32,000 nucleotides of DNA from Mycolicibacterium smegmatis (GCF_001457595.1 NZ_LN831039.1:1980001-2012000); one strand, 5' to 3'. Shown: positions 11,100 to 32,000, counted from the stretch's first letter. Notes: generated by a model not told the origin, from the letters alone. A program made the numbers and translations.

Positions 11100-11615
11100 T
11101 CAGTGCCCGGTGTCGTCGTCGCCCCGGGTGGGGCTGTCGACGAGCACGCTGATCATGCCGTTGGGTTCCAGGTACGCGCGCCGTACCCGGTTCATGTCCT
11201 CGATGCCGTGCAACCTCAGGTGCGAGTAGATCTCGTCGCGGCTCATGAACTCACGCCGCATGACGTGGGTGTTGAGTTCTCCGTCGGCGATCAACAGCTT
11301 CGGCCGCGCCTTCGCGAGGCGGGCGAATCCCGGGAACCGGTAGGCAATGCCGTCGACCGCGACACTCCAGAACAGCACCGTCACGACCACCACGATGCCG
11401 TCGGTCAACGTCGCGTGCGCGGGGGAGAGCGCGGGTCCGGCGGCCTGCGCGACCAGCACGATGATCAGGACGTCGGTCAACCCGAGACCTCCGGACTCGC
11501 GTTGACCCACCGCACGGATCAGCACGAGAAGCACGAGAAACGTGACAGTACCGCGGACAACGCTTTCGGCCGGCGGCGCCGCCGGTACGAAGATCGACTC
11601 CCAATCGGGCATCAT
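11100..11615 (-). CDS. DUF421/YetF-like membrane protein
   Basis: Three N-terminal hydrophobic helices, then a soluble C-terminal part (KLLIADGELNTHVMRREFMSRDEIYSHLRLHGIEDMNRVRRAYLEPNGMISV) typical of the YetF family. The start is one of three ATGs at 11624, 11615 or 11612; GGAG precedes the last two. Confidence 0.75.
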   Translation of the reverse strand: MMPDWESIFVPAAPPAESVVRGTVTFLVLLVLIRAVGQRESGGLGLTDVLIIVLVAQAAGPALSPAHATLTDGIVVVVTVLFWSVAVDGIAYRFPGFARLAKARPKLLIADGELNTHVMRREFMSRDEIYSHLRLHGIEDMNRVRRAYLEPNGMISVLVDSPTRGDDDTGH

Positions 11616-13367: not shown

Positions 13368-14278
13368 GTTCGGTGCCCCACGAACGCCGACACCGCGATC
13401 CCGACCAGCGCGCCGGCCGCCATGCCTGCGTAGCGCCACATCGCCCCGGCGTCGCGGGTGGGGACCACGGGATCAGGTGGCAGGCCGTACACCTCGGGTT
13501 CGTCGAGCAGCAGGAAGAACGCACCGTCGCCGCCCACACCGTCGTTCGGGTCGTGCCCGTACAGCCGTGCCTCGGTGACGCCACGCTCGTGCAGTTCCTC
13601 GACACGTCGCGCCGCGCGTTCACGCAGTTCGTCGAGTACGCCGAACTGGATCGAGTCGGTGGGGCAGGCCTTCGCGCACGCGGGTTCCAGGCCGTCGTGC
13701 AGCCGGTCGTAGCACAAGGTGCATTTCCAGGCCCGTCCGTCGCCCTCGCGCCGTTCGATCACGCCGTACGGGCAGCCGGACACGCAGTATCCGCAGCCGT
13801 TGCAGATGTCCTGTTGCACAACCACGGTCGAGAACTCGGTGCGGAACAACGCGCCCGTCGGGCAGACGTCGAGGCAGCCGGCGTGCGTGCAGTGCTTGCA
13901 CACGTCCGAGGCCATCAGCCACCGGAAGTCCTGCCGTGTCTCGGGTCCCGTGGCATCACCGGGACGCTCGAAGCCCGGCATGCCGAGATCCTCGGTGGTA
14001 CGGCTGGGTTCAGGGGCGGGTTGTTCGATGAACGCGACGTGGCGCCACGAGTTGGCGCCGAGGTTGCCGGTGTTGTCGAACGACATGCCCAGCAGGTTGA
14101 ACCCGTCGTCAGGCACACCGTTCCACTCCTTGCACGCGACCTCGCACGCCTTGCAGCCGATGCACACCGACGTATCGGTGAAAAACCCCACGCGTGGGGG
14201 ATGCTCGTCGTCGTAACCGGCGTCGGTCGCAGGGTCTTCGAGCGGGCCGTAGAAGCTGTTGCGGCGGTTCTCGCTCAT
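13364..14278 (-). CDS. Formate dehydrogenase iron-sulfur (4x[4Fe-4S]) subunit, FdnH-like, with a C-terminal TM anchor
   Basis: Ferredoxin-type cysteine clusters CIGCKACEVACKEWN, CKHCTHAGCLDVCP, CNGCGYCVSGCPYG and CTLCYDRLHDGLEPACAKACP. C-terminal hydrophobic helix AGMAAGALVGIAVSAFVG. ATG 14278 overlaps the alpha-subunit stop as ATGA. Confidence 0.92.
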   Translation of the reverse strand: MSENRRNSFYGPLEDPATDAGYDDEHPPRVGFFTDTSVCIGCKACEVACKEWNGVPDDGFNLLGMSFDNTGNLGANSWRHVAFIEQPAPEPSRTTEDLGMPGFERPGDATGPETRQDFRWLMASDVCKHCTHAGCLDVCPTGALFRTEFSTVVVQQDICNGCGYCVSGCPYGVIERREGDGRAWKCTLCYDRLHDGLEPACAKACPTDSIQFGVLDELRERAARRVEELHERGVTEARLYGHDPNDGVGGDGAFFLLLDEPEVYGLPPDPVVPTRDAGAMWRYAGMAAGALVGIAVSAFVGHRT

Positions 14279-17200
14279 GGCGACTCCTCGGTGTGGTCCG
14301 GCGACTCCCGTGTGGTGTCCAACCGGGTACCCGTCTCGGGCGTGATCTGCGCGCGTTCCCGGTAGCCGCGCAGATAGCCCAGCAGTTGCGGCCCGCGCGG
14401 GCGCCGGCCCGGCTGGATGTCGCACGTCGCGACCTTGCTCTCCTGGATGAACACGTTGGGATCGGCGACGACGCCCAGCAGATCGTTGACCACGTCGCCG
14501 TCGACCAGGCCGACGCTGCCCCAGTGGTACGGCATCCAGATCTGGTGCACCACATGGTCTTCGACGCGCAGCGGGCGCATCCGGTCGGTCACGAACACGC
14601 GTGCGTCCACGGCGGCGCGGCTGGTGACGACGTGCGCCCACTCCATGTGCTCCAGGCCGCGCATCCGTGCGAGTTCGGGCGACACCTCGACGAACAGCGC
14701 GGGCTGCAACTCCGCAAGGTAGGGCAGTTGACGGCTCATGCCGCCCGCGGTGTGATGCTCGGTCAACCGGGCCGCGGTGAACACGAACGGGAACACCTCA
14801 CCATGGGCGTCGGGCCACGACGGGTTCGACGGGTTGTCCTGGCGCCCATAGACTTTGCGCGCCGGGTTGGCCTGCTGGCGGTACAGCGGATTACGCACCG
14901 GTGACTCGTGTGGCTCGTAGTGCGTCGGCAACGGCCCGTCGGCCACGCCGCTCGGCGCGAACAGCCACGCCTTGCCGTCGGCCTGCATCACGAACGGGTC
15001 GTCGCCGCGCAGCGCCTCGACACCGACGGCGCTCGGCGACGGCCGGTAGTCGGGCGGCTTGGTCTTCTCGAAGTCAGGGACGTCGTACCCGGTCCACTCG
15101 CCCTTCTGCTCGTCCCACCACACGAGTTTCTTGCGCTCACTCCACGGACGGCCCTGCGGGTCGGCCGACGCCCGGTTGTAGAGCACCCGCCGGTTCATCG
15201 GCCAGGTCCAGCCCCACTCGTTGTCGTAGGGGCCCGTCTCGGTGTGCGGCGTGCGCCGCGCGGACTGGTTCACGTCGCCGGCGTAGACGCCGCTGTAGAT
15301 CCAGCATCCGCACGCGGTGGTGCCATCGGCCTTGAGCGACAGGTAGTTGTCGACGGCCCGGTCGGTGGTGAGGTCGACGCCGTTGATGCGGCGCAGCACG
15401 TCCTCGCCCGAGGGCTCGTCGCCGTCCAGTTCGTAGTCCCACCACAGATCGAGCAGCGGGCGGTCGCGCTCATCGGTTGAGCCCGCGAGCTTTTCGCGCA
15501 GGATGCGGCCCAGGTGGTAGAAGAACCACAACTCGCTGCGCGCGTCGCCGGGCGGTTCGACGGCCTGCTCGCGCCACTGCAGCATGCGTTGGGTCTGCGT
15601 GAACGTGCCCGACTTCTCCACGTGCGAGGCCGCGGGGAACAGGAACACCTCGGTGCGGCAGGTCTGCGGAGTGATCTCGCCCGTCTCCACCTCGGGCCCG
15701 TCCTTCCAGAACGTGGCGCTCTCGATCTCGACGAGATCGCGCACCACCAGCCAGTCGAGATTCGCCATGCCCAACCGCTGCAGCCGGCCGTGCGCCGAAC
15801 CGACGGCCGGGTTCTGGCCCAGCAGGAAGTAGCCGAACACCTTGCCGTCGACCATGTCCATCACCGTGCGGTACGTGCCGTGGTCGCCGTTGATGCGGGG
15901 GAGATAGTCGAAACAGAAGTCGTTGTCGGCGGTCGCGTTGTCGCCCCAGTATTCCTTGAGCAGCGACACCATGTAGGCATCTGCGTTGTGCCAGAAGCCT
16001 TTCTGGTTGGTGCTGATGATGTCGTCGAGGTAATCGGCCAGCGACTCCTGACCGGCGTGCGGCATCGCGAGGTAACCGGGCAGCAGATTGAACAGCGTCG
16101 GCACGTCCGTCGAACCCTGGATGCTGGCGTGGCCCCGCAACGCGAACACCCCGCCGCCGGGCCTGCCGATGTTGCCCAGCAGCAGCTGGATGATCGACCC
16201 GGCGCGGATGAACTGCGCGCCCAGTGTGTGCTGGGTCCATCCGACGCTGTACACCAGTGCCGTGGTGCGCTCGCGGTTGGAGTTCTCGGTCCACTTGCGG
16301 GCGATCTGGAGGAACTGTTCGGCGGGCACGCCGCACACGCGTTCGACCATCTCGGGGGTGTACCGCGCGTAGTGCCGCTTGAGGATCTGGTACACGCACC
16401 GGGGGTGCTGCAGCGTCGGGTCGTTCGGGATGTCGCCCGCCGCGCCCTCCACCGGCGGTCCGCCGGAACCGGACTGGTACGGCACCGACCGTTCCTTGGC
16501 GTCGGCGCCGTCCTCCTCGGCGTCGGTGCGTTCGTACTGCCAGGTCGACGAGTCGTACGACGCGGTGGCCTCGTCGTAGCCCGAGAACAGCCCGTCGAGG
16601 TCCTCAGCGTCCCGGAATTCTCTGTCGACGATGAACGACGCGTTGGTGTACGCGGTGACGTACTCCCGGAAGTCGAGTTCGTTGGACAGGATGTAGTTGA
16701 TCACCCCACCGAGGAACGCGATGTCACTACCGGCGCGCAGCGGCACATGGCGGTCGGCCAGCGCGCTGGTGCGGGTGAATCGTGGGTCGATGTGCACGAC
16801 CTCGGTGCCCCGCGACTTCGCCTCCATCACCCACTGGAACCCGACCGGATGGGCCTCGGCCATGTTGCTGCCCATGATGACGATGAAGTCGGAATTGACG
16901 AGGTCCTGCTGATAGTCCGTCGCCCCGCCGCGACCGAAGGAGGCTCCCAGACCGGGAACCGTGGCGCTGTGTCAAATACGCGCCTGGTTCTCGATCTGTA
17001 AGGCCCCCAGGGCGGTGAAGAGCTTCTTGATCAGGTAGTTCTCTTCGTTGTCCAGCGTCGCGCCGCCGAGGCTCGCGATGCCCATGGTGCGGCGCAACGT
17101 GTTCCGGTCCTTGTCGAACTGCTGCCAGCCCTTCTCGCGCGCGTCGAGGACACGCTCGGCGACCATCTGCATGGCCGTCTCGAGGTCGAGTTCCTGCCAT

Positions 17201-17541
17201 TCGGTGGCATAGGGCGCGCGGTACTTGATCTTGGTGAGCCGCTGCGGTCCGGTGACCAGCTGCTTGCTCGCCGAGCCCTTCGGGCACAGCCGGCCCCGCG
17301 AGATGGGGCTGTCCGGGTTGCCTTCGATCTGGGTGACCTTGCCGTCTTTGACGTAGACCTTCTGCGCGCAGCCCACGGCGCAGAACGGGCACACCGAATG
17401 CGCGATGTGGTCGGCGTCGGCGGTCCGTGGTGTCAGGGTCAGCGAGCGCTTCGACTGCGCGGCCTTACCACGGCCCAGGGCGTCGGCACCGGTGATCTGC
17501 CGGTACACGGGCCACGACTCGATCAACTTGCGGAAGTCCAT
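14275..17541 (-). CDS. fdhA: Formate dehydrogenase catalytic (molybdo/tungsto-bis-PGD) subunit, selenocysteine-containing; TGA at 16972-16974 read as Sec
   Basis: ORFs 16972-17541 and 14275-16875 are in the same frame, separated only by TGA. Read through, the junction is IENQARI-U-HSATVPGLGASFGRGGATDYQQDLVNSDFIVIMGSNMAEAHPVGFQW. As I recall E. coli FdnG, its Sec motif is DNQARV-U-HGPTV, followed further downstream by GGNAAEAHPVGFRW. N-terminal [4Fe-4S] motif CPFCAVGCAQ...CPKG. 1088 aa including Sec. Confidence 0.93.
16942..16960 (-). promoter_or_regulatory. SECIS apical stem-loop for the fdhA UGA
   Basis: The mRNA reads UGA-CACAGCGCCAC-GGUUCCC-GGUCU-GGGAGCC. That is a 7-bp stem (one G-U pair) with loop GGUCU, beginning exactly 11 nt after UGA. 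The Gly-Leu codons GGU CUG occupy the position I recall for the E. coli fdhF SECIS. Confidence 0.75.
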
Positions 17542-17613
17542 ACCGTCCTCCTACCCATCTGCTGTCGATCAAACCATCGACGGCTGGATGCCGCCTGGCA
17601 GTTGCTGCACCTC

Positions 17614-17731: not shown

Positions 17732-19444
17732 TCAGTCAGCCTGGCCGGTGTCACCCGCACGGCGGACGCGGACCGTCCGGGTCCCGTCGTCCGCACGCGT
17801 GGTGACCCCGCGCGCATCGAGCTGTTCGAGCAGCGGGACCGCCACGCGCCGGGTGGTGTTCAAGGCGCGTTTGGCTTCGGCGACGGTGAACGGCTGCGGC
17901 AGCCCGACGAGGACCTCGGCGGCACGATCGAAGGCGTCAGGACCGAGTACGACGCCGTCGGCGACCCTGACGAACCGGCCCGCACGCACCGCTGCGGCGA
18001 GCTCCTTGGGCCCCAGGTTCAACTCGGCGAGCTCAGCGGCCTCGGGCGCGCGGAACGGTTCGGCCGCGAGCCATTCCCGCACGGTCTGCACGGCCTTGTC
18101 GACGCGTGGCGGCAAGGCAACACCAGGCCGCTGCACCAGACCGTCGCGCAGTTGCAGACCAGTGCCGTCGAGCAACGCCGGCACCAGTTCGACGGCGGGC
18201 AACCCGACCCGTTGGCGCAGCGTCTCGAACGGCATGCCCGCCGCGATATCGTGCTCGGCCGCCCACTGCTCGACCGCTGCCAGTGCCAGTCGCCGCCGCT
18301 CGGCCCACCACTCCGGGGACACCACCCAGTCGCCGATTCGCTCACCGACAACCTCGAACCCCATTGCGCGCAGATCTTTGGCGCGGGCACACACCGGCGG
18401 TGTGACCCGGCCGGTCGCGAGTGCGGCGGCCCGGGCGCGGGCATCGCCTCGTCGGCGCAGCGGCGCAGGCCGCACATCGAGCACCTCGACACCGGCGACG
18501 ATGCGGTGTGCGCCAGGATCTCTCAACAACCCGATATCGCCGATGCGCAACGGCAGTGCGCGCGTGAGGCGCAGGCGGGCGCCGACATCACCGAGCGGTC
18601 GCACATGTACCGGCACCGACGCCGAACCGATGTGCAGCGTCAGCTTCTGGTGCAGCTTGCCCGCCGAACGCAACACCACGTCGACCTCGGAGGTGTCCAA
18701 CCAGGCCCCCGGCGTCCGGACCGCGTCGCCGCGGCGGAGGCTCTCCCGTTCGACACCACGCAGATTCACCGCGACGCGAGCCACGGCCGACACCGCGTCG
18801 CGATCCCGGCCGAGCGACTGCAGGCCCCGTACCGTGACCAGCCGACCGTCGCGTTCGAGTTGGTCGCCGACGCGGATGGTCCCTGCGGCAAGGGTGCCCG
18901 TGACCACCGTGCCCGCGCCGCGCACGGTGAACGAGCGGTCGACCCACAGCCGCACGTCGGAGTCGGTTGCGGGAGCGGGCAATCGGTCGACCAAGGCGAC
19001 CAACTCGGCCTGTACGGAACCCAGATCGGTGCCGAGCACCACACGCGCGTCCGGAATCCGGTCGCGCACCTGGGCGATGGCGCGTGCTGGGTCGGCGAGA
19101 TCAGCCTTGCTGATCACCACCAGGGTGTGCCGCACACCGAGGGCTTCGAGTGCGGCGAGATGTTCTTCGGACTGCGGCATCCAGCCCTCGGTGGCCGCGA
19201 CGACGAACATCGTGGCCGGGACGGGCCCGACCCCCGCCAACATGTTGCCGACGAACCGTTCGTGCCCGGGCACGTCGACGAACGCGATGTCACGCCCCTC
19301 CAGCGTCGTCCACGCGAAACCGAGATCGATCGTCAGACCACGACGCTGCTCCTCGACGAGGCGGTCGGGCCACATCCCGGTGAGCCGGTGTACCAGTGTG
19401 GATTTCCCGTGGTCGACATGACCCGCGGTTGCTACGACGAACAT
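17732..19444 (-). CDS. selB: Selenocysteine-specific translation elongation factor
   Basis: GTPase motifs AGHVDHGKST, DVPGHERF and SKAD, followed by a long C-terminal winged-helix-type extension. Overlaps selA by 13 nt. Confidence 0.93.
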   Translation of the reverse strand: MFVVATAGHVDHGKSTLVHRLTGMWPDRLVEEQRRGLTIDLGFAWTTLEGRDIAFVDVPGHERFVGNMLAGVGPVPATMFVVAATEGWMPQSEEHLAALEALGVRHTLVVISKADLADPARAIAQVRDRIPDARVVLGTDLGSVQAELVALVDRLPAPATDSDVRLWVDRSFTVRGAGTVVTGTLAAGTIRVGDQLERDGRLVTVRGLQSLGRDRDAVSAVARVAVNLRGVERESLRRGDAVRTPGAWLDTSEVDVVLRSAGKLHQKLTLHIGSASVPVHVRPLGDVGARLRLTRALPLRIGDIGLLRDPGAHRIVAGVEVLDVRPAPLRRRGDARARAAALATGRVTPPVCARAKDLRAMGFEVVGERIGDWVVSPEWWAERRRLALAAVEQWAAEHDIAAGMPFETLRQRVGLPAVELVPALLDGTGLQLRDGLVQRPGVALPPRVDKAVQTVREWLAAEPFRAPEAAELAELNLGPKELAAAVRAGRFVRVADGVVLGPDAFDRAAEVLVGLPQPFTVAEAKRALNTTRRVAVPLLEQLDARGVTTRADDGTRTVRVRRAGDTGQAD

Positions 19445-20712
19445 GCGCGGACAGCCTCGACCAACTTGCCGTCGTCCTCGGGGGCGACGGTGCGCAGGTC
19501 CAGCAGGCAGCGTCCGTTTTCCAGCCGCCCGACGACCGACGGGTTGCCGACGCGCAGCGGAGCGGCATACGCCTCGGGCAGACTGACTGCCGCACTGGGT
19601 AATTCAACGTCTGGCGCCCCACCACCGCCGACAGCCGCAGTGCAGTCCACAGCCTTCGCGTCGGGAAGCAGCGATGCCAGGCGACCGGCCCGCACGCGTA
19701 GGGACTCGACGTCGACGCTCAACGCCTGTGCGACGGGCGGAGGGGGACCCGTCAGGGTCGCCTCCAACGCGGCGAGGGTCAGCTTGTCAACACGCAGGGC
19801 GCGCGCCGCGGGATGTCTGCGCAACCGCTCGATCAGATCCTCGGTGCCGAACAGCAGACCGGCCTGGGGCCCGCCGAGCAGCTTGTCACCCGACGCGGTG
19901 ACCAGATCGGCGCCGTCGCGCAGCATCGTCGTCGCATCGGGCTCGTCGGGGAGCAACGGATGCGGCGTCAGCAGGCCCGAGCCGATGTCGACCACCAGCG
20001 GTGCGCCGAGTGCGGCGAGTTCACGAACCGGCACCGACGACGTGAACCCGCTGACGGAGTAATTGGACGGATGCACCTTGAGCACGAACCCGGTGTCGGG
20101 GCCGACGGCGTCGGCGTAGTCGCGCAGGTGGGTGCGGTTGGTGGTGCCCACCTCTCGAATACGCGACCCGGTCGACTCCATAAGCGCGGGCAGACGGAAG
20201 CCGTCGCCGATCTCGATGAGCTCACCGCGGCTGACGATCATCTCCTTGCCCGGCGCCAATGTCATCGCGGCGAGCAGCAGCGCTGCGGCGTTGTTGTTCA
20301 CGACGTGTACGCCGCCTGCGGTGGGGACGGCGCGCGCGAGCGCGGCCAACGCTCCGCGGCCCCGCCGGGCCCGGCGGCCGGTCTCCAGGTCGAATTCGAC
20401 GTCGGTGGCGCCGCTGGCGGTGACGACGGCGTCGATCGCGGCGCGCGACAGCGGTGCCCGGCCCAGGTTGGTGTGTACGACGACGCCGGTGGCGTTGATG
20501 ACCGGTCGCAGGCTCGTCGCGCCTGTCGGCAGGGCGGCGACGGCGGCGTCGGCGACCTGCTCAGGAGGTATCTCACCGGCCCGCGCCTTCTGCTGCGCTT
20601 CGGCGATCACGGATTTCACCAGCGCGCGGCCCAGCAGCTGTTCGGCCGCGGCGAGGCGCGGGTCGGCGAGCAGCGTGTCGGTGCGGGGCACCCGGCGACG
20701 GGGATCAGTCAT
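19432..20712 (-). CDS. selA: L-seryl-tRNA(Sec) selenium transferase
   Basis: The N-terminus RRVPRTDTLLADPRL, VINATGVVVHTNLGRAPL and the PLP-lysine region VTASGDKLLGGPQAG are typical SelA motifs. Confidence 0.93.
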   Translation of the reverse strand: MTDPRRRVPRTDTLLADPRLAAAEQLLGRALVKSVIAEAQQKARAGEIPPEQVADAAVAALPTGATSLRPVINATGVVVHTNLGRAPLSRAAIDAVVTASGATDVEFDLETGRRARRGRGALAALARAVPTAGGVHVVNNNAAALLLAAMTLAPGKEMIVSRGELIEIGDGFRLPALMESTGSRIREVGTTNRTHLRDYADAVGPDTGFVLKVHPSNYSVSGFTSSVPVRELAALGAPLVVDIGSGLLTPHPLLPDEPDATTMLRDGADLVTASGDKLLGGPQAGLLFGTEDLIERLRRHPAARALRVDKLTLAALEATLTGPPPPVAQALSVDVESLRVRAGRLASLLPDAKAVDCTAAVGGGGAPDVELPSAAVSLPEAYAAPLRVGNPSVVGRLENGRCLLDLRTVAPEDDGKLVEAVRACSS

Positions 20713-20735
20713 GGAGGAGCGGTCCTGGCATTCGA

Positions 20736-20830
20736 TGGCGGAGGCGGACGGGAATCGAACCCGCCAGCGGCAGAAACTGTCGCTCAGCGATTTTGAAGAC
20801 CGCGCCGGTCACCAGACCGGATACGCCTCC
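20736..20830 (-). tRNA. selC: tRNA-Sec (anticodon UCA), with encoded CCA
   Basis: Minus-strand sequence: GGAGGCGTATCCGGTCTGGTGACCGGCGCGGTCTTCAAAATCGCTGAGCGACAGTTTCTGCCGCTGGCGGGTTCGATTCCCGTCCGCCTCCGCCA. It has a 6-bp D-stem with a 4-nt loop (CCGGTC-TGGT-GACCGG), anticodon loop CUUCAAA, a long variable arm and T-loop TTCGATT. These are bacterial tRNA-Sec hallmarks. It lies 23 nt upstream of selA. Confidence 0.93.
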
Positions 20831-20860
20831 GTGACCCATCGCTCCATCATTACAGGCAAC

Positions 20861-21862
20861 ATGGTCTTCATGACGTACCGACTGACCCAATACGCCCATG
20901 GTGGCGGCTGTGCCTGCAAGATTCCGCCCGGCGAATTGGAGGACGTGGTACGCGGGCTGACCCACGCCGATCCGAAGGATCCGCTCGGTGAGCTGCTCGT
21001 CGGACTCGACGACGGTGATGACGCGGCCGCGGTGCGGATCAACGGCGATACCGCGTTGATCGCGACGACCGACTTCTTCACACCCGTCGTCGACGACGCG
21101 TACGACTGGGGCCGGATCGCGGCGACCAACGCGCTGTCTGACGTCTACGCCATGGGCGGGCGACCGGTGGTGGCGGTGAACCTGCTGGGGTGGCCGCGCG
21201 ATGTGCTGCCGTTCGAGTTGGCCGCCGAGACCCTGCGCGGCGGTCTCGATGTCTGTGCGGCGGCCGGTTGCCATCTCGCGGGCGGACACAGCGTGGACGA
21301 TCCCGAACCCAAGTACGGCCTGGCCGTCACCGGCATCGCCGATCCGAAGCGGTTGTTACGCAACGATTCCGGTAAACCCGGTGTGCCGTTGTCGCTGACG
21401 AAGCCACTCGGCATCGGTGTGCTCAACAGCAGGCACAAGGCCACCGGTGAAGTGTTTCCCCAAGCGATCGAGGCGATGACGACCCTCAACGCCGCGGCCT
21501 CGGCTGCGGCACTCGCCGCCGGTGTCGAATGTGCCACGGATGTCACCGGTTTCGGTCTGCTCGGACATCTGCACAAGCTGGCCCGCGCCAGTGGGGTGAC
21601 GGCGGTGATCGACTCGAAAGCCGTGCCCTATCTGGAAGGGGCCCGCGAGGCGATCGCGGCCGGATTCGTCAGCGGTGGGTCGCGGCGCAACCTCGAGTGG
21701 GTGAGCCCGCACATCGATGTGTCCGAGGTGAAAGAGGACGAGGCGCTGCTGCTCGCCGACGCGCAGACGTCCGGTGGTCTGCTGATCGCAGGCGAGATCC
21801 CGGGCGCCCCGGTGATCGGCGAACTCGTCGCGCGTGGCGATCACACCATTGTGGTGCGGTAA
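20861..21862 (+). CDS. selD: Selenide, water dikinase (selenophosphate synthetase), Cys-type
   Basis: The N-terminal RLTQYAHGGGCACKIPP corresponds to E. coli RLTQYSHGAGCGCK; the active-site residue is Cys, not Sec. PurM-like fold motifs DDAAV and DFFTPVVDD. ATG 20870 is an alternative start. The 20132-20860 extension is rejected because it runs antisense through selA and tRNA-Sec. Confidence 0.92.
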   Translation: MVFMTYRLTQYAHGGGCACKIPPGELEDVVRGLTHADPKDPLGELLVGLDDGDDAAAVRINGDTALIATTDFFTPVVDDAYDWGRIAATNALSDVYAMGGRPVVAVNLLGWPRDVLPFELAAETLRGGLDVCAAAGCHLAGGHSVDDPEPKYGLAVTGIADPKRLLRNDSGKPGVPLSLTKPLGIGVLNSRHKATGEVFPQAIEAMTTLNAAASAAALAAGVECATDVTGFGLLGHLHKLARASGVTAVIDSKAVPYLEGAREAIAAGFVSGGSRRNLEWVSPHIDVSEVKEDEALLLADAQTSGGLLIAGEIPGAPVIGELVARGDHTIVVR

Positions 21863-26456: not shown

Positions 26457-27290
26457 TCAGTTGATGCTGCAGGCCACCGGTGTGTGGGTGCAGCTGCAGA
26501 CGGCAGCGTACTCGGCCGGCGTGCGGTAGCCCAGCGCCGAGTGTCGGTGTCGGTGGTTGTGCTCGTCTTTGAAGTCGCCGATGACCACCCGGGCCTCGAG
26601 CAGGGTGTTCCAGTGGTTGCGGTTCAGGCACTCCTTGCGCAGTCGGTTGTTGAACGATTCGATGTGTCCGTTGTTCCACGGCGTCCCTGGCGGAATATAG
26701 GACATACCGATCCTTCCGTCGCAAAACTGTTGCAGTGCTTGAGAAATGAATTCCGGCCCGTTGTCCATCCGCAGCACCCTCGGCGGCCCACCCGCCGCGA
26801 CGAACACCTTCTTCAACTCCTCAACGAGTCGGTCGGCGGTGATCGAGCGTTCGACGATGTTGAGCAGCGAGACGCGGGTGTGTTCGTCGATCATCGAGGC
26901 GATCTTGATGGCCTTGCCGTCGATGGTGGAATCGAACTGGAAGTCGATCGCCCACACCACGTTCGGGGCGTCGGCCTCGATCGGCGGGATGGAGGACACC
27001 CCGGCCCGCTTACGCGGACTGTGCACCCGCACCTGCAGGCCCTCCTCGCGCCACAGCCGGTGGATCTTCTTCTTGTTGACCTCACGGCGTTCGTCGTAGC
27101 GCAGCGCTGCCCAGGCACGTCGGAACCCATGGCAGGGGTGTTTGGTGGCGTAGGAACGCAGCCAGCCCCGCATCTCAGCATCGGGATCAGCGGGGGTCTC
27201 CGCCAGAGGGAGGCGACGGCAGGTGGAGCGGGCCAGCCCAACGGCTTTGCAGGCCAGCCGTTCCGACATGCCCATCGTGGTGGTGAGCAT
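26457..27290 (-). CDS. IS3-family transposase OrfB (DDE/rve integrase core), probably expressed as an OrfAB fusion by -1 frameshifting
   Basis: The rve-type core contains WAIDFQFD, LRMDNGPEF and PWNNGHIESFNNRLRKE. The slippery heptamer G_GGA_AAA at 27326-27332 sits at the end of orfA. The -1 frame reads GK-ILSPAAKRRAVDMLTTTMGMSERLAC. Confidence 0.9.
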   Translation of the reverse strand: MLTTTMGMSERLACKAVGLARSTCRRLPLAETPADPDAEMRGWLRSYATKHPCHGFRRAWAALRYDERREVNKKKIHRLWREEGLQVRVHSPRKRAGVSSIPPIEADAPNVVWAIDFQFDSTIDGKAIKIASMIDEHTRVSLLNIVERSITADRLVEELKKVFVAAGGPPRVLRMDNGPEFISQALQQFCDGRIGMSYIPPGTPWNNGHIESFNNRLRKECLNRNHWNTLLEARVVIGDFKDEHNHRHRHSALGYRTPAEYAAVCSCTHTPVACSIN

Positions 27291-27319
27291 GTCGACGGCG
27301 CGGCGCTTGGCAGCTGGGC

Positions 27320-27601
27320 TCAGAATTTTCCCTTCGCGACCTCCCGCAGGGCGTCTTTGACCAGCTCGGCCTCGGCGAGCAGTCGCTTGAGTCGGGCGTT
27401 CTGCTCGCGCAGTTCCTTGAGTTCTTTGGCGGCGTCGGTGTCCATGCCGCCGTAGGAGCGGCGCCAGTTGTACAGCGTCGCGGGCGAGACCTCGAGTTCG
27501 GCGGCGATTTCCTCGCCGGTCTTGCCTTCCGCGGTCAGTTCGTCCGCACGGCGCAGTTTGCGCACGATGTCTTCTGCAGAGTGCCGCTTCCGACCAGCCA
27601 T
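27320..27601 (-). CDS. IS3-family transposase OrfA (HTH plus leucine zipper)
   Basis: MAGRKRHSAEDIVRKLRRADELTAEGKTGEEIAAELEVSPATLYNWRRSYGGMDTDAAKELKELREQNARLKRLLAEAEL is the typical IS3 OrfA pattern. Confidence 0.9.
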   Translation of the reverse strand: MAGRKRHSAEDIVRKLRRADELTAEGKTGEEIAAELEVSPATLYNWRRSYGGMDTDAAKELKELREQNARLKRLLAEAELVKDALREVAKGKF

Positions 27602-27662
27602 ACGTTCATCGTCCCTTCTCGCCCGACATCGGGCTACAGGACTCTAGAACTGGTTGGACTCA

Positions 27663-27975: not shown

Positions 27976-28989
27976 TTAAGCGGCTTCCGTTTCGGTCTCC
28001 TGTTCGGCCGGTTTGGGTGGGTTGATCGCCGCGGATTCAGGTAGGTCGATGACCTTGGGTGCGGTGTCGCGGCCGAATCGGCGTGGGTGGCGCGCCCTGG
28101 CGTCGGCGAGCACGGCTCGGCGCTGGGTGTCTTTCCCGCCGGCGAGGCCGTAGAACACATCGGCGGGTGTGTGCAGCCCGATGCCGCTGTGGCGGTGTTC
28201 ATGGTTGTACCACTGCACGAATCGGTCCATGAAATCCCTCGCGTGATGGATGGATTCGAAGCGTTCCGGGAACGCCGGCGCATACTTCAAGGTCTTGAAC
28301 CAGGACTCGCTGTAGGGGTTGTCGTTGGATACCTTGGGCCGCGAATGCGAGCGGATGACGCCCAGATCCGAGAGCAGTCCGGCGACGGTGTTGCTGGTCA
28401 TCGAGGTGCCCCGATCAGTGTGCACGACGTGTGGGATGCCGTAGGTGCCGAAGATCTGTTCCATCATCTCCTTGGCCAGCTGGCCGCATTCGCGGGCGTG
28501 CACATGGACCCCGACGATGTAACGCGAGTAAATGTCGATCATCACGTAGGCGTCGTAGTAGACCCCTTTGACCGGGCCGGCCAGTTTGGTGATGTCCCAC
28601 GAATACACCTGCCGCGGCGCGGTGGCCACCAGTTCCGGGCAGACCGCTTTGCGGTGCCGGGCCAGCCGACGGCGCTCCTTGACCAGCTTGTTGGCATTGA
28701 GGACGCGGTACATCGTCGACACCGAACACAGGTAGCTGCCTTCATCGAGCAACGTGGCCCACACCTGCATCGGCGCGGCATCGACGAACCGGGCACTGTT
28801 GAGCACCTCAACCACCCGGGTGCATTCGGACTCGGTGAGCTTGTTGACCGGGACCGGTCGTGGTGCCCGATCGGCAGGCGCCGGCGCGGGTTTGGCGCGT
28901 CGAGTGGCCGTCGAGCGGTGCATGCCGGTCACCTCCGCGGCCTTGCGGGTCGGAATCTGGATATCCCGCAGATCGTTGTAGGCATCCAT
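27976..28989 (-). CDS. IS3-family transposase OrfB (DDE/rve integrase core)
   Basis: YSWDITKL...YDAYVMIDIYSRYIVG...HTDRGTSMTS...NPYSESWFKTLKY...WYNHEHRHSGIG is a DDE(35)E-type rve domain. Its frame is open 36 codons upstream into orfA. The slippery heptamer G_GGA_AAA lies at 29055-29061. Confidence 0.9.
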   Translation of the reverse strand: MDAYNDLRDIQIPTRKAAEVTGMHRSTATRRAKPAPAPADRAPRPVPVNKLTESECTRVVEVLNSARFVDAAPMQVWATLLDEGSYLCSVSTMYRVLNANKLVKERRRLARHRKAVCPELVATAPRQVYSWDITKLAGPVKGVYYDAYVMIDIYSRYIVGVHVHARECGQLAKEMMEQIFGTYGIPHVVHTDRGTSMTSNTVAGLLSDLGVIRSHSRPKVSNDNPYSESWFKTLKYAPAFPERFESIHHARDFMDRFVQWYNHEHRHSGIGLHTPADVFYGLAGGKDTQRRAVLADARARHPRRFGRDTAPKVIDLPESAAINPPKPAEQETETEAA

Positions 28990-29417
28990 CAGCGCTTGGT
29001 CGGCGGCGTGTCGGTGTCCGCGCTCTCGGAGAGAGACTCCAAGAGCGCGTGTGCTTTTCCCATGATCCCCAGGGCAGCCTCGGTGGTCGCCAGCCGATTA
29101 TTGGCCTGGGCGAGTTCCTTTTTCAGGCGGGCGATCTCGGCCTGCTCGCGGGTGAGTTTACCGACCTTCTCCCCAGGTGCCTTGCCTTCCAACACCCCAG
29201 CATCGCGTTGTTTGCGCCACTCGGCGATCTGCGAGGAATACAACCCCTCACCGCGCAGGTACGCCCCACCATCGTTGGTCGTACAGGCCTGCTCATAGGC
29301 ATCCAGGTGGGCCAGCTTCTGCGCCGGAGAAATCGAGCGCCGCCGGCGCGGGCCATCAGATCGCGGTGAAGGTGCCACCGCTCCAGTCTCGCGCACAGCA
29401 GCCATCGTCGTCGTCAT
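28989..29417 (-). CDS. IS3-family transposase OrfA
   Basis: 142 aa with a coiled-coil segment, LTREQAEIARLKKELAQANNRLATTEAALGIMGK, containing the frameshift site. Located directly upstream of OrfB. Confidence 0.85.
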   Translation of the reverse strand: MTTTMAAVRETGAVAPSPRSDGPRRRRSISPAQKLAHLDAYEQACTTNDGGAYLRGEGLYSSQIAEWRKQRDAGVLEGKAPGEKVGKLTREQAEIARLKKELAQANNRLATTEAALGIMGKAHALLESLSESADTDTPPTKR

Positions 29418-29490: not shown

Positions 29491-29549
29491 ACCAGTGGAC
29501 TCAACTCACCCTGACACCCAGGGAACTGCTGGAGCGCGACTCCTTCTAC

Positions 29550-29843
29550 TCAGCGCATCAAATACGTGTAGTAATTGCCGATACATTCGAGCGCTTTCGG
29601 GGAGAGTTCGGGATGCCTCGCATGCATCTCTGCCTCGACGAAATCGCCGGCGTCGTTGAGGGTCATGTGAGACCAGTCAGGACGGAGGCTCATGGCTTCG
29701 TCGAGTAGTTCGCGAACGAGGGCTCTCGCAGCCTGCGCGGATTGGGTGCCGTAGAAAGCGTCGAACTCGGTGTCATTCTTACCCGGGTAATGCTTGAGGT
29801 AGAGCGTGAGTGCCTCGCTCGCATCAATGTCGATGCCGGTCAC
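29550..29843 (-). CDS. Small hypothetical protein, third gene of the low-GC operon (candidate immunity/accessory protein)
   Basis: 97 aa. GTG 29843 lies 4 nt after AGGAGGA. Acidic, predicted helical, with no family I recognise. Begins 36 nt downstream of the previous gene. Confidence 0.65.
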   Translation of the reverse strand: MTGIDIDASEALTLYLKHYPGKNDTEFDAFYGTQSAQAARALVRELLDEAMSLRPDWSHMTLNDAGDFVEAEMHARHPELSPKALECIGNYYTYLMR

Positions 29844-29879
29844 GATGTCCTCCTGCGGAGCAAAGAAAGAAGAGAGCCG

Positions 29880-30629
29880 TCAGATTACGTCACGTCCGAG
29901 CAATATCCAGTCGTCAGCTTCATTGACGACTCGAACTCCGGGTATATCCGGGTTGCTCTTGATCATGTTTACTAGAGCGTCCCAAGTGATGCCGCCGTAG
30001 GAGATACCGGGGCGGTTTCGCGTCGTGTAGGTCAGCACCCATCCGGCCCGTCCGGCTGCCGACGAAGTCACAATGTCCGGCTGTCCCGCGTTGGCACCGT
30101 CCTTCAGGTGGAGGTACAGCTCTCGTCCACGAAGGTGAGTTATTGCTGATCCGTACCAACCGTCTGATGTCATTTCTGCAGCATCCGAGATCACTCTCTC
30201 GAGGTCGTCGGCTACCACCAGTGGATTGGGGGTTCGGTCTGCCTCGGGTGTGGAAAGGTCGGCCAGGATGACAGGGAATTGGACGCGCGGGATCGCAACA
30301 GTTTCGTTTCTCATGTTCGCGACGACGAGCCAGTCTGGGCGTACGGTTTCGTAGGCCGCCTTCAGGATGTTCGACCATTGCGAGGCGACGAAACGATCGG
30401 GAAGATCGGGATGGCGTCTCGATGTGTAAACGACCATCGCCGAACTGTCATCGTCCAGTTTGCGCAACCGCGTGGACAGGACACGGTTGCCGTCGATCTC
30501 CCGCTCGGTGGCGACGTAGTACAGCGTCACACCATCGAGTGCTCGAAACAACTCCAATCGAGCACGACCGTCGCCGGTGTCCTGGGCGGCCGAGGAGAAT
30601 ATTCGCGCGCGCTGGTCTTTATCGATCAC
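29880..30629 (-). CDS. Hypothetical protein with two tandem homologous modules, second gene of the low-GC operon (candidate immunity protein; faint SseB-like pattern)
   Basis: 249 aa. GTG 30629 lies 7 nt after GAGGA. The internal repeat pairs AMVVYTSRRHPD...SQWSNILKAAYETVRPDWLVVANMRNETVAIPR with WVLTYTTRNRPG...ITWDALVNMIKSNPDIPGVRVVNEADDWILLGR. Confidence 0.7.
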   Translation of the reverse strand: MIDKDQRARIFSSAAQDTGDGRARLELFRALDGVTLYYVATEREIDGNRVLSTRLRKLDDDSSAMVVYTSRRHPDLPDRFVASQWSNILKAAYETVRPDWLVVANMRNETVAIPRVQFPVILADLSTPEADRTPNPLVVADDLERVISDAAEMTSDGWYGSAITHLRGRELYLHLKDGANAGQPDIVTSSAAGRAGWVLTYTTRNRPGISYGGITWDALVNMIKSNPDIPGVRVVNEADDWILLGRDVI

Positions 30630-30703
30630 TGTGAGGTCCTCGGAGTCGGTTGTCGATCGGTAGTCCGGAGAACAAAGGCGACAGGTAGGTGTTCGGGCAT
30701 GGC

Positions 30704-32000
30704 TTACCAGTCATCATCGCCGAGGTTTTCAGGTTCAGGCCAGGGATACTTCTCAATGAAATCGTAGGTGTCCTGGTGGTAGATCCCGTGGACGTCGAAA
30801 ACTCTGTGGTTCCAGGAACCGAGGCACGCCACGAAGTCAACCGCTCCCATGTTCGGCTGTAGAAGGTCACTGAGTGTTGTCGCTCGATCAACCGTGTGCG
30901 GAGTACCTACAATGTTCATGTCGTCGGGCGGCAAAAGTGTGTAGTTGGGCATCGTTTCGCCTGGGTAGTACGTCTTCTTGAAGACGCGGGAGGTGTCCCC
31001 ACCCGACTCGATGAGATTCCCCAGCGACTGCGTGATCGGAGAACCATGTTCGCCGTACACCGTCACGGATGTGTCTGCGGGGACGGTGAACGTTCCATCG
31101 CCGCTGTGGTAATCACCATGCCCGCTTATCTTGTAGCGGCCGTCTGGCCCGACGGCGTTCTCGCGCGGACCGTCGTCGTCGCTGTAGCCACGATCATCGC
31201 CCCGCTGTTGATCGGTGTCGTCCCGCCAGCTATGGCTTGGCTCTGCGCGCACATCCGCGTCAGGCTTGTTCGATGCTCGATCGATTGAATCCTGATCTGT
31301 ATCCCGAAGAGTACGACTATCTGTCTCCGAAGTGAGTCCGTCGTGTCTTGCGGTTGGTTCCATCTGGCCATTCGGCGCAGGACCATCGGCAGATGTCGTT
31401 CTGTGGAACAACTCGGTTGCCCTGCCCGTGTCCGGGTCGATCTGGACAATTCGAGTGACATTCGGGTTATCCATCAGACGTGGAATCTCGACCGTCTGCC
31501 AGATGTTGCCTGGCCGAAGGTCGCTGCCCACGATCGCCGTAACGTCGCCGCGAGCATTCTCAGCATATGCCGCCGAAGCGTCTTCCCAGAACCTGACTGA
31601 TTCGGGATCGTGACGGTTCCATGCGGGCAACGGATGCACGCCGTTGCGCTCAAGCGTCATCTCGAGCGTTGTCCCGTTCGAGCCCTCCGCAATTCGCTCG
31701 GCAATTCCAGAGCCGTCCGGTCCTACGCCGACCCCGTTCGCGTCGCGTCCTGACCAATAGTGAGCCGAATCAGGTTCTGTTCTTGTCAGACGAAGGAGTT
31801 CGTCATAAGACGGCAGGCTGCCCGGAACGTAGTGGCCATTCTCATCGAGCATCGGGTTGTAGTCGAGATCTGACTTTGCAGGATCCGTGAATGCGTCGCC
31901 GTCGTGCACAGGCGGCTCCAGCCCACTGGAGTCGTGCGGTGGTTCGGGTTTCGGGGGTGGGGAGTTGTGGTGAGAATCGGACGGCGGCACAGACGAACCC
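30704..32000 (-). CDS. Multidomain putative secreted toxin (5' end outside the window): Pro-rich linker, ADP-ribosyl cyclase/CD38-like domain, acidic linker, C-terminal His/Cys domain
   Basis: The frame is open to the window edge; GTG 31990 is only the ORF finder's start. Residues about 45-196 carry YWSG, TTLEMTL, RFWEDASAAYAENARGDVTAIVGSD and IWQTVEIPRL, matching the four conserved ADP-ribosyl cyclase/CD38 motifs as I recall them. TAA stop at 30704-30706. Confidence 0.75.
   Translation of the reverse strand, partial: GSSVPPSDSHHNSPPPKPEPPHDSSGLEPPVHDGDAFTDPAKSDLDYNPMLDENGHYVPGSLPSYDELLRLTRTEPDSAHYWSGRDANGVGVGPDGSGIAERIAEGSNGTTLEMTLERNGVHPLPAWNRHDPESVRFWEDASAAYAENARGDVTAIVGSDLRPGNIWQTVEIPRLMDNPNVTRIVQIDPDTGRATELFHRTTSADGPAPNGQMEPTARHDGLTSETDSRTLRDTDQDSIDRASNKPDADVRAEPSHSWRDDTDQQRGDDRGYSDDDGPRENAVGPDGRYKISGHGDYHSGDGTFTVPADTSVTVYGEHGSPITQSLGNLIESGGDTSRVFKKTYYPGETMPNYTLLPPDDMNIVGTPHTVDRATTLSDLLQPNMGAVDFVACLGSWNHRVFDVHGIYHQDTYDFIEKYPWPEPENLGDDDW

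Follow-up and report, generated by a model that had tools for sequence, protein, structure and literature searches.

The DNA considered here is a stretch of 32,000 nucleotides from the Mycolicibacterium smegmatis chromosome (GCF_001457595.1, NZ_LN831039.1:1980001-2012000; this whole stretch is called the window), and the subject is a minus-strand toxin gene whose 3' part occupies positions 30704..32000 (stop codon 30704-30706). The encoded protein carries an ADP-ribosyl cyclase (ARC) domain of the CD38 type followed by a second domain, Stv. With a probability of roughly 80%, the locus is, on the chromosome, the 3' end of a polymorphic-toxin operon organised like esxF-esxE-cpnT-ift, which would encode a tandem ARC and Stv toxin together with two nested immunity genes and would act by the depletion of nicotinamide adenine dinucleotides, NAD(P)+. 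An ADP-ribosyl cyclase/CD38-like domain had been called in the original prediction for this DNA. The identity of the domain was upheld; what had been overlooked are ~230 residues beyond ARC, which include a second toxin-type domain, and two downstream partner genes.

The visible open reading frame comprises the 431 C-terminal residues of the protein in a single minus-strand frame that runs off the window at position 32000. At the window edge lies the end of a long Pro/Ser/His-rich linker, disordered as judged by its composition (31865..32000, minus strand), that leads from a WXG100-like N-terminal region to the toxin domains. The ARC domain, a predicted NAD(P)+ glycohydrolase toxin domain of the CD38 fold, follows at 31400..31864 on the same strand (visible residues ~46-200, full-length residues ~880-1034). 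When visible residues 30-215 were compared with the PDB sequences by phmmer, two bacterial structures were matched: 9ouf_A (E = 3e-34) and 9ro8_A (E = 2.5e-33). The first is Tac1 of Streptococcus parasanguinis, a toxin with the CD38 core fold (Colautti, Kim & Whitney 2025, PMC12356396). The second, labelled an 'ADP-ribosylcyclase toxin', is the toxin domain of Pantoea ananatis PANA_2924, or ARCtox (Martinkus et al. 2025, PMC12605009). Both are antibacterial toxins that hydrolyse NAD+ and NADP+. A profile made from 30 sequences reached 9ouf and 9ro8 at E = 2.8e-47 and 2.3e-47, respectively. The same profile found the Aplysia cyclase (1lbe) at E = 0.037 with the alignment FW..AS..YA..GEV...YELPNL..VTR, which reproduced the alignment given in the original prediction. 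The Pfam model of the family is based on eukaryotic proteins (PF02267, Rib_hydrolayse) and scored 17.3 bits (E = 0.003) against a gathering cut-off of 25, with 50 residues (134-183) aligned. Thus, the sequence match to CD38 and the Aplysia cyclase is marginal when taken alone, and membership in the CD38 family is made secure by the bacterial ARC structures and by the fold.

For window residues 40-205, a two-lobe, minimal CD38-like fold was predicted in an AlphaFold2 model (mean pLDDT = 88.2). A Foldseek search of this model against the PDB returned 9ouf (E = 2.5e-16, RMSD 1.5 Å, TM 0.75/0.84), 9ro8 (E = 4.5e-16, TM 0.71/0.91), the Aplysia cyclase (E = 1.4e-5), and CD38 and CD157 (E = 1e-4 to 1e-3), each with a probability of 1.00; the RMSD to the Tac1 and ARCtox structures was 1.5-1.8 Å. 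The model therefore superposes on the bacterial members and, more weakly, on the eukaryotic ones. The motifs quoted in support of the earlier call were all found where they had been placed, and the ARC domain is without any Cys, in agreement with the remark that the disulfide cysteines of the eukaryotic enzymes are absent. It is confirmed that the window encodes a bacterial ARC domain, with a similarity far above chance.

The active-site residues were identified by reading equivalent positions from the phmmer alignments, using the residue numbers in PMC12356396 and PMC12605009. All of the codons are on the minus strand. The predicted catalytic Glu is located in the motif TVEIPRL (codon GAG, 31487..31489); it is E168 in the numbering of the original prediction and E1005 in the full-length protein, and aligns with Tac1 E573, ARCtox E356 and CD38 E226. 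A second active-site Glu is located in TTLEMTL (codon GAG, 31661..31663; E110, full-length E947) and aligns with Tac1 E516, ARCtox E299 and CD38 E146. Three Trp residues complete the comparison. The Trp of RFWED (codon TGG, 31586..31588; W135, full-length W972) is an active-site residue aligned with Tac1 W540 and ARCtox W323, the Trp of HYWSG (31754..31756; W79, full-length W916) aligns with ARCtox W273, and the Trp of PAWNR (31619..31621; full-length W961) aligns with the third cleft Trp of Tac1. Across 30 homologues the catalytic Glu is nearly invariant and the three cleft Trp residues (W43, W88 and W99 of the alignment) are invariant. The equivalences proposed earlier for E168, E110, W79 and W135 therefore hold, since the same positions have been validated by mutagenesis in Tac1 (E573, E516 and W540) and in ARCtox (W273, E299, W323 and E356). 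Every residue whose mutation kills or cripples Tac1 or ARCtox is kept in the M. smegmatis domain.

The remainder of the protein lies outside the window and was read from strain mc2 155 (L026, CP001663.1). A 1265-aa protein from that strain (ABK69844.1/AFP38303.1/A0QTJ8; L026:6129-9926) contains the visible part, all 431 residues at 100% identity, as its residues 835-1265. Look-ups by exact sequence also matched SelA, SelB and a TPR protein of the window to identical M. smegmatis entries, and the products of the two small genes downstream of the toxin to identical mc2 155 entries. In A0QTJ8 a WXG100_2 domain is found at residues 142-244 (33.7 bits, cut-off 27), and the Pro/Ser/His-rich linker, as seen in the loci L008 and L026, extends over ~400 residues at about positions 481-875. 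A search of the N-terminal 480 residues against the PDB sequences matched nothing. There was no hit to TNT (PF14021) in the toxin, for which Pfam gave WXG100_2, Stv and the sub-threshold Rib_hydrolayse. Since the precomputed Pfam annotation consists of WXG100_2 and Stv only, the ARC domain is invisible to standard annotation, and the protein is named in databases as a 'putative adhesin' (transferred from Stv) or an 'ADP-ribosyltransferse'.

In mc2 155, the genes lpqB-mtrB-mtrA-tmk are followed by two WXG100 genes (289 aa, 73.4 bits; 92 aa, 60.3 bits) and then by the toxin gene. An orthologous operon on a 360-kb metagenome contig (L010) likewise has two WXG100 genes and then a toxin with a WXG100-like N-terminal region. 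The same elements are shared with CpnT-IFT of Mycobacterium tuberculosis: two upstream WXG100 genes, a WXG100-like N-terminal region, a long linker, an NADase toxin end and an immunity gene downstream. The systems differ in the fold of the NADase, which is TNT in CpnT and ARC/CD38 in M. smegmatis, in the number of toxins and immunity genes (one of each in CpnT-IFT, two of each here), and in the host, M. smegmatis being a saprophyte. In one entry of a review table, the nearest match to Rv3903c (CpnT) in M. smegmatis is MSMEG_1870, and from the gene order, with mtrA, mtrB, lpqB and tmk as neighbours, MSMEG_1870 would be the gene studied here. In other species, the SigM regulon includes the cpnT-type operon. 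CpnT-IFT is mycobacterial and ESX-dependent, and by analogy the M. smegmatis toxin may be exported through an ESX system with the aid of its two WXG100 partners.

The parallel to CpnT also bears on the target. As the NADase of CpnT kills macrophages, a toxin with the same operon layout and N-terminal region, listed as the closest M. smegmatis match to Rv3903c, might be aimed at eukaryotic predators or hosts (amoebae, macrophages) rather than at bacterial competitors, and toxicity of the Pantoea ARCtox has been seen in both yeast and E. coli. Such a target would be compatible with the mechanism proposed below. However, bacteria are the targets against which the characterised ARC toxins have been shown to act, and the sequence discriminates neither target, for NAD(P)+ is universal and immunity genes would be needed either way. 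A eukaryotic target is considered possible, if on balance unlikely.

Two genes follow the toxin gene on the minus strand. The first (29880..30629) encodes a 249-aa protein (ABK74082.1/AFP38302.1) that is the predicted immunity partner of Stv, based on synteny with Stv-only toxins and on a gene fusion in L010. The second (29550..29843) encodes a 97-aa protein (ABK73125.1/AFP38301.1) that is the predicted immunity partner of ARC, based on synteny with loci that have ARC as their only toxin domain. In 16 of 16 such ARC-only loci (L001-L005 and L011-L021, from five genomes and eleven metagenome contigs), a homologue of the 97-aa gene starts 17-35 nt past the ARC stop codon; the M. chelonae copy of the protein has 61% identity. 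In L006 and L007, the gene immediately after an Stv-only toxin gene encodes a homologue of the 249-aa protein with 52-53% identity; one of these two loci sits inside an ESX locus of a 6.4-Mb genome. As the 97-aa gene follows ARC-only toxins and the 249-aa gene follows Stv-only toxins, each small gene tracks one toxin domain, and the order in the window is nested: ARC, Stv, the 249-aa gene and then the 97-aa gene. In L010 (7168-8223), the 249-aa and 97-aa proteins are fused in the same order as one 351-aa protein with a short Ala/Pro linker (…GRDVIEAPAPVAANSGIDASQ…). From its composition, the fusion is a putative natural bi-immunity protein that matches the bi-toxin. Multi-toxin proteins and polyimmunity proteins are known from the survey of Zhang et al. 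2012, and immunity fusions such as that of L010 are thus precedented. Within the cytoplasm of the producer, the 249-aa protein would neutralise Stv and the 97-aa protein would neutralise ARC, presumably by occlusion of the cleft as predicted for Tci1 and ARCimm.

Assignment of the 97-aa family to the Imm74 or Imm63 immunity families was considered and rejected, as no hit was found among 13 members scanned at E up to 10; the 249-aa protein was likewise without a hit. Immunity proteins other than Imm74 are already known for ARC toxins linked to type VI secretion (T6SS) (PMC12356396), so an Imm74 or Imm63 neighbour does not strictly define an ARC toxin. A relic of the 97-aa gene read through after ARC was also rejected: a tblastn match in L002 had seemed to extend past the ARC stop codon, and a tblastn search of the window with the 97-aa protein found the real gene only.

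Further copies of the 97-aa gene were observed in mc2 155, where a paralogue with 72% identity (L026, 17303-17593) is located among insertion sequence (IS) elements a few kb downstream, accompanied by two short fragments (11140-11208 and 19951-20004), also among IS elements. The paralogue and the fragments look like orphan immunity genes. The strain of the window is without the fragment that adjoins the 97-aa gene in mc2 155. A separate family of 145-148 aa (MKTLL…FLYLDPRYRIT…) is encoded after the 97-aa gene in M. chelonae (L002, 10864-11310) and directly after a toxin composed of ARC and an unknown domain (P0159; L027, 4359-4796). This family is probably the immunity protein for the second domain of P0159 and an orphan in M. 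chelonae.

All other close ARC homologues come to an end only a few residues past the domain (for example '...IFSRDK'); the frame in the window instead runs on into Stv. A disordered, acidic linker of ~85 residues separates the two domains (31142..31399, minus strand). DNA similarity to the ARC-only loci stops at ~31416-31425, DNA similarity to the Stv loci begins at ~31174, and there is none over the linker between them. At the protein level, this linker shows weak conservation with the one that precedes Stv in L007, a toxin that has no ARC domain but, like the M. smegmatis protein, contains the long linker. Stv (PF21527) is a predicted second toxin domain located at 30707..31141 on the minus strand (76.6 bits against a cut-off of 24.2, visible residues 291-392). 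It is the last domain of the protein and ends in an acidic ...DDDW tail. Among 13 Stv homologues, the motif SGHG is conserved, and the motif IExG and the Cys of AAC are invariant; the corresponding codons of the window, on the minus strand, are His 31118-31120 (full-length H1128), Glu 31007-31009 and Cys 30824-30826 (full-length C1226). A 2022-2026 preprint describes Stv as occurring only at the C-termini of Rhs and other toxin-type proteins, with a conserved His and Cys. The same preprint proposes a toxin with a His-Cys dyad, and notes a resemblance to the CPD (cysteine protease domain) found in MARTX and a co-occurrence with Peptidase C80.

Alternatively, Stv might be a clan-CD-like cysteine protease for self-processing, for instance to free ARC after export, with the 249-aa protein as its inhibitor or chaperone. 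A CPD domain releases the effector domains in MARTX and in large clostridial toxins. The invariant Cys after Ala-Ala and the His of SGHG recall His-Cys dyads, the linker between ARC and Stv is disordered, and the likeness to the MARTX CPD and the co-occurrence with Peptidase C80 fit the same role. In contrast, Stv is the sole C-terminal domain, in the payload position, of WXG100-type toxins (L006 and L007) and of Rhs proteins. It is always accompanied by its own conserved downstream partner, which an autoprocessing module does not obviously need. Furthermore, Foldseek found no CPD or caspase similarity in the PDB, and the second domain in parallel tandems is of a bona fide toxin type (AHH or NS_2 nuclease). 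Self-processing is thus disfavoured and regarded as unlikely, chiefly since the Stv-only toxins have a partner gene of their own. As a second toxin domain, Stv would have a separate toxic activity, possibly that of a cysteine hydrolase.

With respect to other Stv proteins, a conserved tail of acidic and aromatic residues (…DDDW, …YDDW, …DFDEF) closes those of the actinobacterial group and is located in the window at 30707-30740 on the minus strand; no described function was found for this tail. In L006 (4352-6720, CP050191.1), beside eccE and mycosin genes, the Stv-only toxin is present as two genes that overlap by 4 nt, encoding proteins of 550 aa (WXG100_2-like) and 239 aa (linker and Stv). 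This pair represents either a split toxin or a frameshift.

The predicted chemistry of the ARC domain follows from its two Glu residues. The Tac1 reaction proceeds via a cyclic ADP-ribose (cADPR) intermediate; with the mutation E573A, both activity and toxicity are lost, and with E516A, cADPR is released (PMC12356396). Neither Tac1 nor ARCtox has a detectable release of cADPR (PMC12356396, PMC12605009). The sole bacterial enzyme shown to release cADPR natively is Nac1 of Actinophytocola oryzae, in which cADPR and ADP-ribose are produced in about equal amounts (PMC12356396). Nac1 shares with the M. smegmatis protein an actinobacterial origin, the ARC fold and the catalytic Glu. It differs as a stand-alone protein with a Sec signal, no immunity gene and Ala at the E516 position, where the M. 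smegmatis protein has Glu, a delivery region and a partner gene; Nac-type enzymes in general are without an immunity gene and without a trafficking domain (PMC12356396). Given Glu at the position of Tac1 E516 rather than the Ala of Nac1, net hydrolysis of NAD(P)+ to ADP-ribose is predicted, resulting in depletion and not signalling. Of the two alternatives left open by the original prediction, a toxin that depletes NAD(P)+ is therefore favoured, and an output of cADPR or NAADP (nicotinic acid adenine dinucleotide phosphate) is disfavoured, the second Glu being present. Inside the target cell, the cleft that separates the two lobes of ARC would bind NAD+ or NADP+. Glu1005 would then catalyse the release of nicotinamide and the formation of a cADPR-type intermediate, and Glu947 would promote the hydrolysis of this intermediate to linear ADP-ribose. 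The outcome would be a rapid depletion of NAD(P)+ and growth arrest, with no signalling nucleotide released.

A genuine cyclase, with a cADPR or NAADP-like product used for signalling in either the producer or the target, is permitted by the fold and the chemistry: CD38 and the Aplysia cyclase make cADPR, Nac1 releases it along with ADP-ribose, and it is the intermediate of Tac1. It is nevertheless very improbable in this case. E947, as the driver of cADPR hydrolysis, is conserved, and the two toxins that share this Glu release no detectable cADPR. The WXG100-type delivery region and the strictly syntenic partner gene are unlike the situation in Nac-type enzymes, and no defence-system model was matched. 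The suggested tie to immune signalling by cADPR isomers found no link either, PADLOC being without a hit. An origin from a defence system or a phage was rejected, as neither PADLOC nor PHROGs gave a hit for the toxin or for either downstream gene.

Evidence that both domains of the tandem are maintained was obtained by comparison with the L010 operon, in which the toxin is 64% identical over its length and has the same ARC-Stv tandem. The ARC domains are 84% identical with no gaps, and the ratio of nonsynonymous to synonymous substitution rates (dN/dS) is 0.071; the Stv domains are 73% identical with a dN/dS of 0.073. By comparison, the long Pro/Ser-rich linker evolves fast, with 47% identity, 83 gaps and a dN/dS of 0.44, and the inter-toxin linker has 33% identity and 31 gaps, with dS saturated. 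From the low dN/dS values, both ARC and Stv are kept by selection. Since identical copies are present in many genomes of M. smegmatis and also in several metagenomes, the tandem is no assembly artefact. In this putative double toxin, purifying selection on both domains coincides with a downstream gene that tracks each domain and with the fusion of the partner genes in L010.

The G+C content over the toxin tip and both immunity genes (29500-32000) is 56-61%, compared to 66.5% for the window, and the third-position G+C content is also low, which is consistent with horizontally exchanged cassettes. As polymorphic toxin loci evolve by cassette replacement, as all other close ARC homologues end directly after the domain, and as the toxin-immunity region has an atypical G+C content and flanking IS elements, ARC might be a non-functional passenger displaced by a newer Stv cassette that is now the only working toxin; this is, however, the least probable of the alternatives, given a dN/dS of 0.07, a gapless ARC alignment with the catalytic residues intact in both lineages, an ARC partner gene that is retained here and fused in frame to the Stv partner in L010, and the recurrence in unrelated loci of ARC-first tandems that retain an ARC immunity gene of the Imm74 family. 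Displaced toxin ends are, moreover, reportedly found usually downstream of the active gene and not in frame upstream, an observation ascribed to Zhang et al. 2012.

To place the tandem of ARC and Stv among its relatives, the two domains were used as a phmmer query against 1.84 billion cluster representatives (E up to 0.001). Of the 1324 relatives found, only one representative has the ARC-Stv tandem. Among the best 150, however, ~7 of the ~105 ARC representatives continue for 180-230 residues beyond the domain. The domain behind ARC is an AHH nuclease in two of these and an Endonuclea_NS_2 nuclease in one, and is otherwise unknown, including in P0159, which is CpnT-like and of mycobacterial type. 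In L028 (P0238), ARC and an AHH nuclease are followed by a 180-aa gene and then by Imm74. In L030/L031 (P0230), ARC and an unknown domain are followed by an ankyrin gene and then by Imm74. In L033 (P0234), ARC and Endonuclea_NS_2 are followed by a YezG-like gene and then by an Imm74-like reading frame cut by the end of the contig. The nested order thus recurs where contigs are long enough, with the classical ARC immunity family in the second position. These low-GC tandems also have a conserved junction just after ARC, 'VIFERKAGGKVY[IV]KPNETL[VI]KNGEWDK', which suggests that second toxins are exchanged here by recombination, along with the immunity genes that belong to them. The nested order would follow from a single insertion of a module, composed of a linker, Stv and its immunity gene, between the end of ARC and the ARC immunity gene.

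The odds appear even that, in part of the ARC family, the NADase serves as a constant internal first blade behind which second toxins and their immunity genes are swapped, with A0QTJ8 as the first ESX substrate, of the type VIIa secretion system (T7SSa), to have two active toxins and two immunity proteins. As a matter of speculation, NAD+ depletion could be paired with a second activity in order to block recovery, such as repair by NAD+-dependent ligase after nuclease attack. In the texts of PMC12356396 and PMC12605009, no reference was found to second toxins in tandem, to fusions with nucleases or to mycobacteria, and the architecture of ARC followed by a second toxin has possibly gone undescribed so far. 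A different arrangement was observed in L004 (9039-12700), a Microbacterium-like metagenome-assembled genome, where ARC forms a 214-aa protein of its own whose N-terminus is short and helical; the gene for it shares one base with the end of a gene for a 257-aa WXG100_2 protein. A second copy of this two-gene module follows with a different toxin end, forming an array of split polymorphic toxins.

Several points weigh against the interpretation of the locus as an operon for a double toxin with two immunity proteins. A toxic role for Stv is the hypothesis of one preprint, and the Stv model (pLDDT = 84) had no structural neighbour in the PDB or BFVD by Foldseek and no characterised relative. The immunity roles of the 97-aa and 249-aa proteins are drawn from synteny and the fusion. 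The 249-aa protein had no match in Pfam, NCBIfam, PADLOC, PHROGs or the PDB. No Pfam relative was found for the 97-aa family (13 members, E up to 10), the 97-aa protein had no NCBIfam match either, and the profile of the family identified nothing in the PDB beyond designed helical repeats. P0159, the third ARC tandem of mycobacterial type, has a different downstream gene of 145 aa and no 97-aa gene on its short contig (L027); since the contig is short, P0159 neither supports nor refutes the nested rule. The literature found on the M. smegmatis gene consists of the MSMEG_1870 table entry, and no paper on the protein was found. M. smegmatis has the systems ESX-1, -3 and -4, one of which would export the toxin.

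The locus may be considered further in terms of the known systems that it most resembles. Tac1-Tci1 shares 43% identity in the Foldseek alignment, the minimal CD38 core without disulfides, both Glu and the three cleft Trp residues, as well as the placement of ARC in the C-terminal end of a T7SS substrate with a small immunity gene after it. In contrast, Tac1 terminates an LXG protein exported by the T7SSb of Firmicutes, while the M. smegmatis carrier is WXG100-like and of the CpnT type (T7SSa/ESX), its ARC is followed by a second toxin domain, and the 97-aa partner has no similarity to Imm74/Tci1. ARCtox/ARCimm (PANA_2924/PANA_2923) shares 45% identity, and W273, E299, W323 and E356 are all kept in M. 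smegmatis. ARCtox hydrolyses NAD+ and NADP+ without the release of cADPR (PMC12605009); it differs as a PAAR-linked, single-toxin T6SS effector of a Gram-negative bacterium. The accompanying survey includes EsxA-fused (T7SS) ARC toxins in Actinobacteria, among them a Gordonia example (PMC12605009). With the eukaryotic enzymes of PF02267 (CD38, CD157/BST-1 and the Aplysia cyclase), the two-lobe fold and the active-site residues (CD38 W125, E146, W189 and E226) are held in common. The identity, however, is ~20-25%, and the TM score is ~0.5 when normalised to the query and 0.32-0.40 when normalised to the eukaryotic targets. The M. smegmatis domain is also shorter (~150 residues compared to ~250), without the extra helices and the disulfide cysteines, and the eukaryotic cyclases are signalling ecto-enzymes rather than delivered toxins.

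The PEST/PT-Imm prophage cassettes (PMC10654092, PMC8092301) likewise combine one or more WXG100 genes, a toxin with a WXG100-like N-terminus and an immunity gene. In PEST3, the WXG100 genes number two and the N-terminal domain resembles that of CpnT, and the toxin ends of PEST cassettes are exchanged by recombination. The M. smegmatis locus differs from them in being chromosomal, between tmk/mtrAB-lpqB and IS elements, rather than in a prophage, and the PEST proteins are described with one toxin domain each. ARC and Stv ends are not mentioned in PMC10654092 and PMC8092301, from which the word 'cyclase' is absent. Finally, the WHIX 'double-blade' T6SS effectors (Fridman et al. 2025, PMC12135965) also have two distinct toxic domains per polypeptide, each with its own immunity protein. 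In WHIX effectors, a secretion domain in the middle separates the two toxins, and immunity genes are located on both sides of the effector; in M. smegmatis, a T7SS-type carrier has both predicted toxins in tandem at its C-terminal end, followed downstream by nested immunity genes whose order is the reverse of that of the domains. Because the M. smegmatis carrier is of the WXG100 type (T7SS), WHIX is at most an analogue and not the same class.

Directly downstream of the immunity genes are two IS3-type units that belong to the context of the locus and lie outside the toxin system. The first is an IS3-family insertion sequence with orfA and orfB (27976..29417, minus strand), and the second is an IS3-type transposase (26457..27605, minus strand). 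The assignment is based on a match to NCBIfam transpos_IS3 (168 bits, cut-off 160) and on rve domains. The IS elements at this spot vary among M. smegmatis strains (L023-L026), so the site is a hotspot of rearrangement. Elsewhere in the window, a formate-dehydrogenase-like molybdopterin oxidoreductase gene (14275-17550, minus strand) contains an in-frame TGA at 16972-16974 (minus strand), which in the motif ARI-U-HSAT is a predicted selenocysteine codon. It is adjoined by a tRNA-Sec gene (20736-20830, minus strand), selB (17732-19444), selA (19432-20712) and a selD-like AIRS gene (20132-21862). From its gene content, this region is a complete selenocysteine-decoding island.

With regard to novelty, Tox-ARC toxins with T7SS/WXG delivery had been predicted in Actinobacteria in 2012, and the structure and enzymology of the family, which proved to be that of a fast NAD(P)+ hydrolase toxin, were published in 2025 (PMC12356396, PMC12605009); the original prediction had rated the novelty of the enzyme family too highly. 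The ARC call is correct and falls within a known enzyme family, and the enzyme taken by itself is a modest gain, extending a toxin family of known chemistry by one mycobacterial, ESX-linked member. The protein has a CpnT-like build with an NADase of a different fold and a predicted second toxin, and may serve as a safe and tractable model for CpnT-type export and for its role outside pathogens. Candidate partners can be assigned to two uncharacterised families, of 97 and 249 aa, by which Stv gains a candidate toxin-immunity pair. Since the nested layout is found independently with Imm74 in unrelated loci, it suggests a general route by which polymorphic toxins may acquire a second warhead.

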